Shown in pieces: positions 12,001 through 15,000 of a stretch of DNA of 64,000 nt. This DNA is from a plasmid. The stretch lies in the NCBI RefSeq assembly GCF_054482525.1, contig NZ_JBTHVG010000003.1. One strand, given 5' to 3'. Position 1 is the stretch's first letter. Every line of letters begins with the position of its first letter. A program made the position numbers.

Positions 12001-15000
12001 GCTGTTACGGCCAGTATGAATATGGTGGATGCCGTAGGTCTGAATGGTTTCCTGAATAAACTGAAGACGTTTTTGAGGATCTTCAGGTTCAGTCAAAGAA
12101 TAATCGGCAACGGAAAGAATTTCATGTCTTTCGTTACGGTGGGAGGCAAATACGGTAATAGCAAAATTATTTTTTTGTGCAAATGATTTTACCCCCTGAA
12201 TAATATCTCGCTGGGAGGACAAACCTTCCATAAACCAAATTTTCTTGTTCATTTTTTTTAATTATCCGGAACGCCATGCAAATTTATGATTGAGAAGTGA
12301 GTCTATGAGTGTCTACGCTACATGTCAATCATAATATGATTAATAACTTCAGTGGTTATGGAGTGCGTCAGTGTTTTTTTTAGTGCCTTATAACGTATTG
12401 ATATTTAAATTAAAAATAGAAAAATGAACACCATGAAAAGGATTTATTTTTGTGTTTTTGAAGAAAACTACCAAAATTTCCCTTGTCAGAGAACTTCATC
12501 ATGATATGATTTTCTTCGTCAGTTACTAAATATACCTTTGATTGTCTCGGTCATTACCATTTTAAGGAATAAAACATGGTTTCATTAAGTAAGAACCAGA
12601 CGGTATCACTCAGCAAAGAATCTTCAGCATTAAGCCAGCTTCAATTCGGTCTCGGTTGGGATCCGGTTAAGAAAAAAGGTCTTCTTGGAGGATTGTTTGG
12701 AGGCAACGACTCAATCGATCTCGATGCTGGCTGCGTATTAATGGACAGCACCGGTAAAACAATTGACACCATCTGGTTCCGCAAACTGGAATCCACCTGC
12801 GGCGCTGTTGTGCACAGTGGCGATAACCTGACCGGTGAGGGTGACGGTGACGATGAGGTGATTAAGGTCAACCTCTCCCGACTGCCTGCAAACGTTGAAT
12901 ACCTGGCGTTTACGGTAAACAGCTTCCGTGGTCAGTCGTTCAATGACGTCGAAAACGCGTTCTGCCGCGTTGTCGATCAAACCGGCAAAGAGCTGGCTCG
13001 CTACAAGCTGACTGAGCAGGGCTCACATACCGGGATCGTTATTTCTTCGCTGCGCCGTAATAACGGCAACTGGGACTTTACCGCCCTTGGCCATGCCTGT
13101 CGCGGCCGCACAATTGACGATATGCACTCCGATATCGTTTCAGCGGTTATTCGCTAATGAACCTGACGCCGGGGGGCAATGCCCCCGTTCCAGCCCAGGA
13201 GTTGCGGGTCCGGATCACCTCGGGCGGCCAGGTGGATGCTTCGGCGTTTCGCCTGTATGCCGACGGGAAGGTGCAGGGTGATGCGGACATGGTGTTTTAT
13301 GGTCAGCCACGTAACGATGATGGTACCGTCAGCCTGGTCAGTGAAGGCCAGTACTCAACCTTTACTGTCGCGCTCAACCGGCTGAAACCTGATGTCCAGA
13401 AAATTGCGTTCACCGTGACCTGTGACGGTGGGCAGACGGTGTCCGGTCTTCGTAATCTTTCCATCGACGTGGAGCAAGGGGCTACCGGCCTGGTTAGCGG
13501 CAGTGTCGAACTGAGCGGCCGTCAGGAAGCAGCCTTAATTCTGGGTGAATTTTACCGTCGTAATAATGACTGGAAATTCCGCTTCGTTGCGCAGGGGTTC
13601 AACGGTGGACTTAAACCGCTGGCAGAGCATTTCGGCGTAAATATTGCCGACGAACCGGCTCCCGCAGCCCCGACTCCTCCGGTTGTAACCCCTCCGCCAG
13701 TTGAGACAAAAATCAGCCTGAGCAAGGTATCGCTGACAAAAGAGAAGCCTGCAATCAGCCTGACCAAACGGGATAACTTCGGTGAAATCCGGATCAACCT
13801 GAACTGGCACCGGGGCAGCGGCAAATCAGGCTTTGCAGGCATGTTCGGCTCCAAAGGAATCGACCTGGATCTGGGGGCCTTTGTTGAGCTTCAGGACGGG
13901 TATAAATCGGTCATTCAGGCGCTCGGTAATGCATTCGGTAATTATCGCGATGAACCGTATGTTCAGCTCAAGGGCGATGACCGGACGGGTGATGTATCAG
14001 ACGGCGAGTGGCTGCATATCAATGGACGTGAATGGAAGCATATCCGCGAAGTGCTGATTTACGCCTTTATTTATGAAGGTGTTCCCAGCTGGGACAAGAC
14101 TGATGGTGTGGTCACCATTCATGTGCCGGATCAACCGCCCATTGAGACCCGCCTGACCGAAGGTGAAAACCGTCGCACATTGTGCGCCATTGCCAGACTC
14201 GTAAACGAAAACGGCGCAATTAAAGTCGAGCGAATTAACCAGTACTTCAAAGGCCAGGACGAAATGGACCGGGCATTTGGCTGGGGATTTCGCTGGAGCG
14301 CCGGTTCTAAATAACACAGCAACAAAGGAAACAGGTATGAGCTTTTTCGACAAGGTAAAAGGTGCCATTAACTCTGGCCGGGACGAACTGACCCGCCAGG
14401 TTGGTCGTTTCAAAAACAAAAAATTTATGCACGGCACCGTTGCTGTATGTGCCCGTATTGCCGTATCGAGTGACGGCGTGAGTTCGGAAGAAAAGCAGAA
14501 AATGATGGGCTTTCTTCGCTCTTCAGAAGAGCTGAAGGTCTTCGATACCAATGAGGTGATCGAGTTCTTCAATAAACTGGTTTCAAGCTTCGATTTCGAT
14601 GTTGAAATCGGCAAGGGCGAAACCATGAAATACATCCTGGCGCTGAAAGATCAGCCTGAGGCCGCTCAGCTGGCCTTACGTGTTGGTATTGCCGTTGCGA
14701 AAAGTGACGGTAACTTCGATCAGGACGAGAAACTGGCCTCCCGCGAGATCGCTATCGCGTTGGGCTTCGACCCGGCTGAATTTGGCCTCTGATCCACATC
14801 CCTAAGGGTAAAATATGGTTTCCACACACATCGGCTTCCCGACTGAAACGGTCATTGTTTTCATTGCGCTTTCAGTCGGTGCCATCTTTATTGACCTGTT
14901 TATGCACCGTGATGACAAGCCCATTTCCCTGAAGAGTGCGGCGCTCTGGTCCGTATTCTGGGTTGTGGTTGCGATGGCATTTGCCGGTTTCCTCTACATC

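Follow-up and report, generated by a model that had tools for sequence, protein, structure and literature searches.

Placement and conservation of two proposed TerW operator palindromes at the back-to-back promoters of a plasmid-borne ter cluster

The ter cluster of an IncHI2 plasmid, analysed here within a 64-kb stretch of DNA (the window), is divided by a divergent control region from which the ATP-grasp (biosynthetic) operon and terZABCDEF depart in opposite directions. The reading that we favour, with a probability of roughly 85%, is that this spacer consists of two back-to-back sigma-70 promoters, each carrying one 15-bp operator, AATCAT-N3-ATGATT, for the regulator TerW (Table 1). What was computed here comprises the two palindromes and their absence elsewhere in the window, how deeply their sequence and placement are conserved, the hexamers of both promoters, and the agreement of these with published transcription starts. 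TerW would probably bind each palindrome as a dimer, repress rather than activate, and autoregulate.

The assignment of the palindromes to TerW is already known. Both spacer sites are listed as TerW operators for plasmid R478 (Kravchenko et al., 2021; PMC7843439, supplementary file TerW.fa), and the same article identifies the palindrome as the stretch protected by TerW and cites evidence that TerW binds the ter promoter region (Valkovicova, 2011, Biologia 66:565, as cited in PMC7843439). Window positions 12322-12346 are identical to the published 'terZ1_R478_site_1', and 12492-12516 differ from 'terZ2_R478' at one flanking base. The published motif (Kravchenko et al., 2021), about 25 bp long and palindromic around a core of AATCAT-N3-ATGATT, is found at both window sites; its two copies lie between terZ and the divergent biosynthetic operon, at about -249 and -79, and the window's cluster also contains a cognate terW. 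The spacer of pKL53-L, the plasmid of the TerW studies, is 99% identical to that of the window, with three differences, none of them in the sites. The element is thus the TerW operator of the enterobacterial ter cluster (PMC7843439), with nothing of substance different here; what is added is where the sites lie and how well they are conserved in 57 species and in Acinetobacter, the placement of the operators relative to measured starts, and the apparent location of terW at the end of the leftward operon.

Table 1. Coordinates of the features of the ter control region and its flanking genes in the window
Feature	Position	Strand	Basis or remark
Intrinsic terminator, strong; end of leftward operon	5500-5523	-	12 nt past the terW stop codon
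terW, 155-aa regulator	5535-6002	-	Annotation, profile searches; apparently closes the leftward operon, which is tightly packed and runs from 12252 to 5535
ATPgrasp_Ter gene, first of leftward operon	11194-12252	-	PF15632, E = 1.7e-37
Divergent control region, ATP-grasp (biosynthetic) operon / terZABCDEF	12253-12575		323 bp; annotation of the 100% identical plasmid pSTM6-275
Left arm ATGATTGA of the first-pass inverted repeat	12286-12293	+	+8 to +1 of leftward transcript; not conserved
Leftward transcription start	12293	-	Transferred from EDL933 Cappable-seq 1098496; 41 nt upstream of ATP-grasp start codon
Leftward -10 hexamer TAGACT, 17-bp spacer	12300-12305	-	Conserved as GAGTCTA on + strand
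Leftward -35 hexamer TTGACA	12323-12328	-	Conserved; -35 to -30 of mapped start
Site 1, predicted distal operator, perfect palindrome AATCATAATATGATT	12327-12341		Conserved block 12322-12341; R478 site 1 identical
terZ -35 hexamer TTGTCA	12483-12488	+	TTG 90-100% conserved
Site 2, predicted proximal operator CATCATGATATGATT, one mismatch	12497-12511		Conserved block 12493-12513
terZ extended -10 TGaTATGAT	12502-12510	+	Inside site 2
terZ transcription start	12518	+	Transferred from EDL933 Cappable-seq 1098720; 58 nt upstream of ATG
terZ Shine-Dalgarno AAGGA	12564-12568	+	Conserved
terZ, leads terZABCDEF	12576-13157	+	TerD domain, E = 1.2e-46

The spacer has a GC content of 30% against 49% for the window, and its annotation and composition together bear out an AT-rich divergent ter control region, as the first-pass annotation had described it. 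Chance expectations were estimated from 5000 dinucleotide-preserving shuffles of the spacer. Counting both strands, it holds four copies of ATGATT where 0.69 would be expected (P = 0.0026 for this particular hexamer; one hexamer or another reaches at least four copies in 74% of shuffles), and in the whole window ATGATT stands at chance frequency (46 observed, 46.5 expected). One copy lies in the left arm of an inverted repeat that is considered below, and the remaining three are half-sites of the two palindromes. With at most one mismatch, AATCAT-N3-ATGATT is present twice in the spacer against 0.009 expected, two copies being found in no shuffle, and it recurs nowhere else in the 64 kb. A 'weak terY1 site' for TerW has been reported in Pectobacterium. 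In window positions 1-12000 a position-weight matrix, built from the same sites that it later scores, gave no match of at least 8 bits, and the terW-terY1 spacer contained no conserved block among 22 loci.

Both promoters are recognisable as sigma-70 pairs, TTGACA/17/TAGACT on the minus strand and TTGTCA/16/TG-TATGAT on the plus strand, each matching at 10 of 12 positions and each followed by a measured start 7-8 nt downstream of the -10 element. The leftward -10 has an A at -11 in 100% and a T at -7 in 90% of sequences. The starts were mapped by Cappable-seq in E. coli O157 strain EDL933 (1098496 on the minus and 1098720 on the plus strand, 224 bp apart, with the same pair in a duplicate island; PMC10469882 Table S5); the measurements come from the island copy of O157 and were carried to the window through an alignment of spacers that are 97% identical. 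The spacing predicted from the hexamers is likewise 224 bp. Relative to these starts, site 1 is centred at -41 of the leftward promoter and shares 2 bp with its -35 hexamer, and site 2 spans -21 to -7 of the terZ promoter, with its centre at -14.

Because site 2 covers the extended -10, bound TerW should exclude RNA polymerase at terZ, and terZABCDEF would be held down. Such repression is consistent with the protection from terZA lethality that is ascribed to terW (Whelan, 1997, as cited in PMC4633105). It would have to be partial or conditional, since the terZ start was detected in seven of eight conditions in EDL933, which itself carries terW (PMC10469882 Table S5). At the other promoter, site 1 touches the -35 hexamer and the transcript appears to extend to terW, so that TerW would control its own synthesis. 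To judge from the sequence, terW appears to be the final gene of a seven-gene leftward biosynthetic operon, because no intergenic gap between the ATP-grasp gene and terW exceeds 17 nt, a terminator follows terW, and no terW start site is given for EDL933 in the gene-specific table (PMC10469882 Table S5, sheet 1). terW lies 6.25 kb from the control region, to which the first-pass annotation had called it adjacent. PhoP affects terW and the genes upstream of it in opposite senses in Pectobacterium (PMC7843439), and for this reason there may be an internal terW promoter in some hosts.

TerW appears to combine an N-terminal winged helix-turn-helix with a C-terminal domain resembling a ribbon-helix-helix. 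The best fold matches of its AlphaFold model (pLDDT 88) are MarR and ArsR repressors, the Foldseek matches being of a generic winged-helix kind only (E about 1e-3, TM-score about 0.4). Searching solved structures with the TerW sequence returned no match, and in Pfam the profiles HTH_11, HVO_A0261_N, HTH_20 and MarR all scored below their cut-offs on the window protein, which by this measure falls outside the MarR and ArsR-SmtB families. Its likeness to winged-helix repressors of divergent regions, such as MarR at marO, is accordingly one of mechanism only and not of membership: a small winged-helix protein, short palindromes overlapping -35 or -10 elements, two sites in one control region and, for TerW by inference, autoregulation. 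Unlike these repressors, TerW reaches none of the gathering thresholds of their families and has the additional C-terminal domain. The latter shares with the ribbon-helix-helix autorepressors (CopG/Arc/MetJ, antitoxin-type) a beta-strand followed by two helices (VSLSLRM...SRSEAVE); Pfam RHH_1 matches it below threshold, in 10 of 21 members with a best E-value of 3.6e-5, and Klebsiella orthologues are named 'ribbon-helix-helix protein, CopG family' in RefSeq. Cys34, in the turn preceding the recognition helix, is invariant and is kept even in Acinetobacter.

A site centred at -41 is also in the classic position for a class II activator, so that TerW could either lower or raise leftward transcription. 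TerW might then act in both directions, repressing terZ from site 2 and activating the biosynthetic operon together with terW from site 1, an arrangement that we regard as unlikely, though far from negligible. Besides the position of site 1, the weakness of the leftward -10 (TAGACT) speaks for it, as does the different behaviour of the two promoters, the leftward start having been detected in three of the eight EDL933 conditions under which terZ scored seven. The leftward promoter, however, has as its -35 a perfect TTGACA, which is conserved and which class II promoters usually lack, and the winged-helix proteins that TerW most resembles in fold are mostly repressors. Repression at both promoters remains the reading that we prefer.

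Conservation was assessed in 57 TerW-bearing loci, one per species and from some 24 genera of Enterobacterales, gathered by a search with TerW. Site 1 is present in all 57, at about -248 from the terZ ATG (within 5 bp in most; -206 to -226 in Yersinia and Xenorhabdus). Site 2 lies at about -80 (within 4 bp; -70 in Yersinia and Xenorhabdus), with no more than two mismatches in 56 of the loci and three in Brenneria. Whole spacers are 32-67% identical to that of the window, yet the blocks holding the two sites (Table 1) are at least 95% conserved, and in a position-weight-matrix scan the two sites were the only strong matches in each 10-20 kb locus. On a plasmid of Acinetobacter venetianus, which encodes a TerW of 41% identity, the divergent layout recurs with three sites, two of them perfect and one with a single mismatch. 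Since the loci had been collected by way of TerW, co-occurrence was assessed from one TerW-less cluster, inspected directly, and from genus counts. The former, on a Pseudomonas aeruginosa megaplasmid, has collinear genes and a TerZ of 56% identity, and neither TerW nor the palindrome was found in it. In the latter, TerW matches and spacer matches on plasmids correspond almost one to one by genus, and Pseudomonas, with 131 TerZ matches, is absent among the genera listed for TerW.

These data bear on the idea that a host factor, or a cluster protein other than TerW, binds the palindromes. Control of ter promoters by OxyR or PhoP, in the same operon and spacer, has been reported in Proteus mirabilis (Toptchieva, 2003), in Yersinia pestis (Ni, 2014) and in Pectobacterium (PMC7843439). 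In this plasmid, however, no OxyR or PhoP match in the spacer exceeds chance: the best match to the OxyR pattern (ATAGnTnnnAnCTAT, a 7-bp gap, ATAGnTnnnAnCTAT) scores 12 of 20, as do or surpass 79% of shuffles, and that to the PhoP direct repeat (T/G)GTTTA-N5-(T/G)GTTTA scores 8 of 12, a value reached by every shuffle. Consensus searches of the spacer for Fur, CRP and FNR likewise gave nothing above chance, and in the version carried by the Klebsiella plasmid, too, an OxyR motif was looked for without success by Vornhagen et al. The sites instead accompany terW on plasmids and islands in hosts from Acinetobacter to Salmonella, and among those genes of the cluster that were annotated or scanned, none but terW was recognised as encoding a DNA-binding protein. 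Together with the published equation of palindrome and protected region, this makes another binder improbable. A perfect IHF core, WATCAANNNNTTR, at 12391-12403 on the minus strand (P about 0.04) is not conserved. Rfam covariance models gave no match on either strand of 12100-12750 at E-values up to 1, and, with regard to a riboswitch or cis-regulatory RNA, the terZ leader as mapped is just 58 nt long.

It is harder still to credit that the conserved blocks are promoter elements alone. The extended -10 does fall within site 2, and site 1 adjoins the -35, but conservation runs over 20-21 bp with dyad symmetry, far past a hexamer, and one and the same palindrome is placed differently at the leftward promoter (-41) and at terZ (-14). 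Furthermore, the third copy, present in Yersinia and Xenorhabdus as well as in Acinetobacter, does not fall on any promoter element, whether mapped or predicted.

The first-pass annotation had drawn the architecture differently, taking ATGATTGA at 12286-12293 and TCAATCAT at 12325-12332 as a single long-range inverted repeat, with two loose ATGATT copies at 12336 and 12501. The arms do lie at these coordinates, exactly 31 bp apart, and ATGATT is found at 12336-12341; positions 12501-12506 read ATGATA, the true copy being at 12506-12511. Although the 8-bp arms are perfect, can be extended to 15 nt with 13 of 15 complementary, and include one located at the leftward transcription start, an operator of this form is scarcely credible: an inverted repeat with perfect 8-bp arms no more than 60 bp apart arises in 47% of shuffles and is thus not beyond chance, 5% attain the 15-nt form, the left arm has a column identity of 20-40% (50 distinct intergenic sequences, being 49 loci and the window), already differs in Enterobacter asburiae and in the closest relatives outside the IncHI2/O157 lineage, and gives no position-weight-matrix match of 8 bits or more, and the right arm is fully explained by two other elements, the -35 hexamer and the left half-site of the compact palindrome. 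At the level of sequence, the long-range repeat is refuted as a conserved unit. What stands is that ATGATT-type elements matter and that TerW is their likely binder, the true units apparently being the two compact palindromes, one at each promoter. The control region is genuine, if unremarkable, and the first-pass annotation had re-found a published regulator-operator pair while misdrawing its architecture.

The distance between the operators invites a further, more speculative suggestion. Measured from centre to centre it is 166-171 bp in 50 loci, 155-158 bp in six and 136 bp in two, or about 16, 15 and 13 helical turns, and the intervening DNA is always AT-rich (18-35% GC) and not conserved in sequence. 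The two sites might act as one phase-locked switch rather than independently, although we consider this quite doubtful. The two-domain TerW would bridge them in a loop, coupling the biosynthetic operon, terW and terZ-F, and the loop might be released by reaction of Cys34 with tellurite or oxidants or, alternatively, by the operon's own nucleoside-like product.

The ter cluster is common on IncHI2 resistance plasmids, Klebsiella virulence plasmids and O157 islands, and it has been tied to fitness in the gut and bladder. With the operators placed against measured starts, reporter and binding experiments on its control can be designed precisely.

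The ter control region is built around two conserved palindromes, one per promoter, that stand in a defined register with measured transcription start sites and are co-inherited with terW. The gene layout, taken from the annotation of an identical plasmid together with Pfam, bears out the first-pass annotation of 12253-12575 as a divergent control region. The first-pass proposal that a ter regulator such as TerW acts there also holds, and earlier publications already describe both the region and TerW's involvement. terW itself, which had been considered adjacent, actually lies 6.25 kb from the spacer. 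Over the 523 bp around the spacer, many IncHI2 plasmids of Salmonella, E. coli and Klebsiella (e.g., pSTM6-275) match at 100% identity, and E. coli chromosomal ter islands at 95-99%. A strong terminator separates the terY1-X-Y2 genes from the leftward operon. A type II toxin-antitoxin module (helix-turn-helix regulator and HipA-family toxin; 21682-23305) follows the ter cluster downstream in the identical plasmid's annotation.

Features of the ter control region and its flanking operons
Feature	Position	Strand	Description
Site 1 (distal operator)	12327-12341		AATCAT-N3-ATGATT, perfect copy
Site 2 (proximal operator)	12497-12511		AATCAT-N3-ATGATT, single mismatch
Leftward promoter (consensus scan)	12328..12323 and 12305..12300	-	TTGACA, 17-bp spacer, TAGACT
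terZ promoter (consensus scan)	12483-12488 and 12502-12510	+	TTGTCA, 16-bp spacer, TG-TATGAT
ATPgrasp_Ter	11194-12252	-	First gene of leftward operon
Leftward seven-gene operon		-	Tightly packed: ATPgrasp_Ter, phosphoribosyltransferase, hypothetical gene, StiP protease, HpcH aldolase, DUF4236, terW
terW	5535-6002	-	Last-named gene of leftward operon
terZABCDEF	starts at 12576	+
Intrinsic terminator, strong	5500-5523	-	10-bp stem with 6 G-C pairs, then T run; 12 nt past terW stop codon

A repeat finder returned a 14-nt direct repeat, ATCATAATATGATT (12328-12341) and ATCATGATATGATT (12498-12511), each copy of which is palindromic. Only 0.009 copies of AATCAT-N3-ATGATT with at most one mismatch are expected per spacer in dinucleotide-preserving shuffles (5000, at the spacer's 30% GC), and no further copy with at most one mismatch occurs within the 64 kb. 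The first-pass annotation had instead paired ATGATTGA (12286-12293) with TCAATCAT (12325-12332), 31 bp on, as an inverted repeat, with loose ATGATT copies beside it; these strings are present, as is ATGATT at 12336-12341, and the fourth copy, placed at 12501 in the first pass, occupies 12506-12511. Among the shuffles, 47% contain a perfect 8-bp inverted repeat whose gap is at most 60 bp, and the pairing is therefore unremarkable; its 15-nt extension (13/15 complementary) is equalled by 5%. The word ATGATT occurs four times against 0.69 expected (P = 0.0026 for that word), while some hexamer or other reaches four copies in 74% of shuffles. The left arm, 12286-12293, makes up nucleotides 1-8 of the leftward mRNA, has 20-40% column identity in an alignment of 50 spacers and is changed already in Enterobacter asburiae. 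Three of the four elements are half-sites of the two palindromes and the left arm is a stray copy; the proposed unit joins an operator half-site to non-conserved sequence by chance.

The start sites come from Cappable-seq of E. coli O157:H7 EDL933 (PMC10469882, Table S5), in which a '-' start at 1098496 is assigned to RS05325 (ATP-grasp) in 3/8 conditions and a '+' start at 1098720 to RS05330 (terZ) in 7/8, with the same pair in the duplicate island. On NZ_CP008957.1 these lie 41 and 58 nt, respectively, upstream of the start codons. Since the EDL933 spacer is 97% identical to that of the window and both flanks are identical, the starts map to 12293 (-) and 12518 (+). Relative to them the leftward hexamers fall exactly at -35..-30 and -12..-7 and the terZ -10 element at -13..-8. 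Site 2 covers -21 to -7 of the terZ promoter; site 1, centred at -41, covers -34 to -48 of its leftward counterpart. Detection of the leftward start was limited to three conditions, exponential salt, stationary M9 and stationary salt (PMC10469882), so the two TerW-associated promoters were not co-expressed under those conditions.

An alignment of TerW, used as the search query, retrieved 59 loci, each from a different species and together covering about 24 genera of Enterobacterales. The spacer was extracted from each after locating terZ and the ATP-grasp gene, and 57 loci include the region upstream of terZ. The distal palindrome is present with at most two mismatches in all 57, at -248 +/- 5 from the terZ ATG in most, and the proximal one, at about -80, in 56 (Brenneria has three mismatches); Yersinia and Xenorhabdus have three copies each. 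A MAFFT alignment of the 50 distinct spacers gives only 32-67% overall identity to the window, with 12322-12341 and 12493-12513 at least 95% conserved; further conserved blocks are GAGTCTA (12299-12305), TGTCAA (12323-12328), AAAA (12473-12476), CTTG (12482-12485) and the Shine-Dalgarno sequence. Scored with a position-weight matrix, the palindromes are the only strong matches (17-30 bits) in the window and in every one of the loci (10-20 kb each), a result that is partly circular because the matrix was built from the same sites. With this matrix and 22 aligned loci for the terW-terY1 spacer, no conserved extra site was found upstream of terY1 or terW. Ahead of terY1, that spacer does hold an inverted repeat with 8-bp arms, ATGTATGA-N6-TCATACAT (5318-5339, -), which includes ATGATGATT; it is unconserved among the 22 loci and not TerW-type by the matrix. 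Loci L037, L048-L052 and L055 (Proteus mirabilis, P. myxofaciens, Rouxiella and Xenorhabdus) yielded no ATP-grasp homologue and still have the distal operator ahead of terZ. In L037 a 381-aa ORF (5792-6937, +) diverges from terZ and is of a size that would suit the phosphoribosyltransferase. One contig labelled Chryseobacterium sp. 18061 (L002, CACSKA010000014.1) carries a ter cluster with a TerW 98% identical to that of the present enterobacterial plasmid, and is probably mislabelled or contaminating, from a mixed 'Ancestor' community assembly.

Further afield, an Acinetobacter venetianus plasmid (order Moraxellales) encodes a 41% identical TerW, its gene directly after the aldolase gene, and keeps the divergent layout; its spacer carries two perfect sites and a third that has a single mismatch. 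The ter cluster of a Pseudomonas aeruginosa megaplasmid is collinear in gene order (TerZ 56% and ATP-grasp protein 43% identical), and has neither TerW nor the palindrome in 24.6 kb. Among PLSDB plasmids, TerW and spacer matches per genus are nearly equal (Escherichia 441/441, Enterobacter 364/364, Salmonella 350/350); Pseudomonas has 131 TerZ matches and is missing from the listed genera with TerW matches.

Kravchenko et al. (2021; PMC7843439) describe the ter regulatory region as most strongly conserved in a 25-bp palindrome; in their supplementary file, R478 site 1 is identical to 12322-12346 and site 2 differs by one flanking base. Binding of TerW to the ter promoter region was reported in 2011 (Valkovicova 2011, as cited in PMC7843439), and the spacer of pKL53-L, the plasmid of the TerW studies, has three differences from the window, all outside the sites. 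The N-terminus of TerW is a winged helix-turn-helix (HTH_11 and HVO_A0261_N matches are below threshold), the best fold matches of its AlphaFold model (pLDDT 88) are MarR and ArsR repressors, and its C-terminal segment has a ribbon-helix-helix signature. The RefSeq name of the Klebsiella orthologues is 'ribbon-helix-helix protein, CopG family'. TerW has a single invariant cysteine, Cys34 (full-length numbering; 5901-5903; motif CSEPT), located in the turn that leads into the predicted recognition helix; the 21 aligned homologues all share it, as does the Acinetobacter TerW, and it could sense tellurite or oxidants through its thiol.

An Rfam scan of spacer and flanks returned no family, and OxyR, PhoP, Fur, CRP and FNR consensus sequences have no match above chance in the spacer. 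An unlikely reading makes the operator pair a phased, looped switch whose signal would be cysteine-based or a metabolite; its basis is the spacing classes, the AT-rich composition between the operators and the invariant cysteine. The operator centres (12334 and 12504 here) are 166-171 bp apart in 50 loci, 155-158 bp in six (Xenorhabdus, Klebsiella grimontii and Pantoea coffeiphila) and 136 bp in two Yersinia. These approximate 16, 15 and 13 helical turns and suggest same-face binding or looping; the independent indel events behind them number only about four, and the spread within the main class is itself half a turn. The DNA between the operators (12342-12496 and its equivalent in 49 loci) is unconserved in sequence and AT-rich everywhere (mean GC 26%, range 18-35%), with several A/T tracts at 12400-12465 in the window; this may reflect curvature or flexibility, UP-element-like sequence or H-NS binding. 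The perfect IHF core there (12391-12403, -) is not conserved.

Under control by TerW at both promoters, a dimer on site 2 would block open-complex formation at the terZ promoter; the protection by terW against terZA lethality (Whelan et al. 1997, as cited in PMC4633105) fits repression. A dimer on site 1 would control the leftward operon, where the effect could be of either sign, -41 being a position from which class II activators work as well. Because the gaps from the ATP-grasp gene to terW are at most 17 nt, the strong terminator lies past terW, and terW has no entry for EDL933 in the gene-specific table of start sites (sheet 1 of Table S5, PMC10469882), TerW would thereby control its own synthesis.
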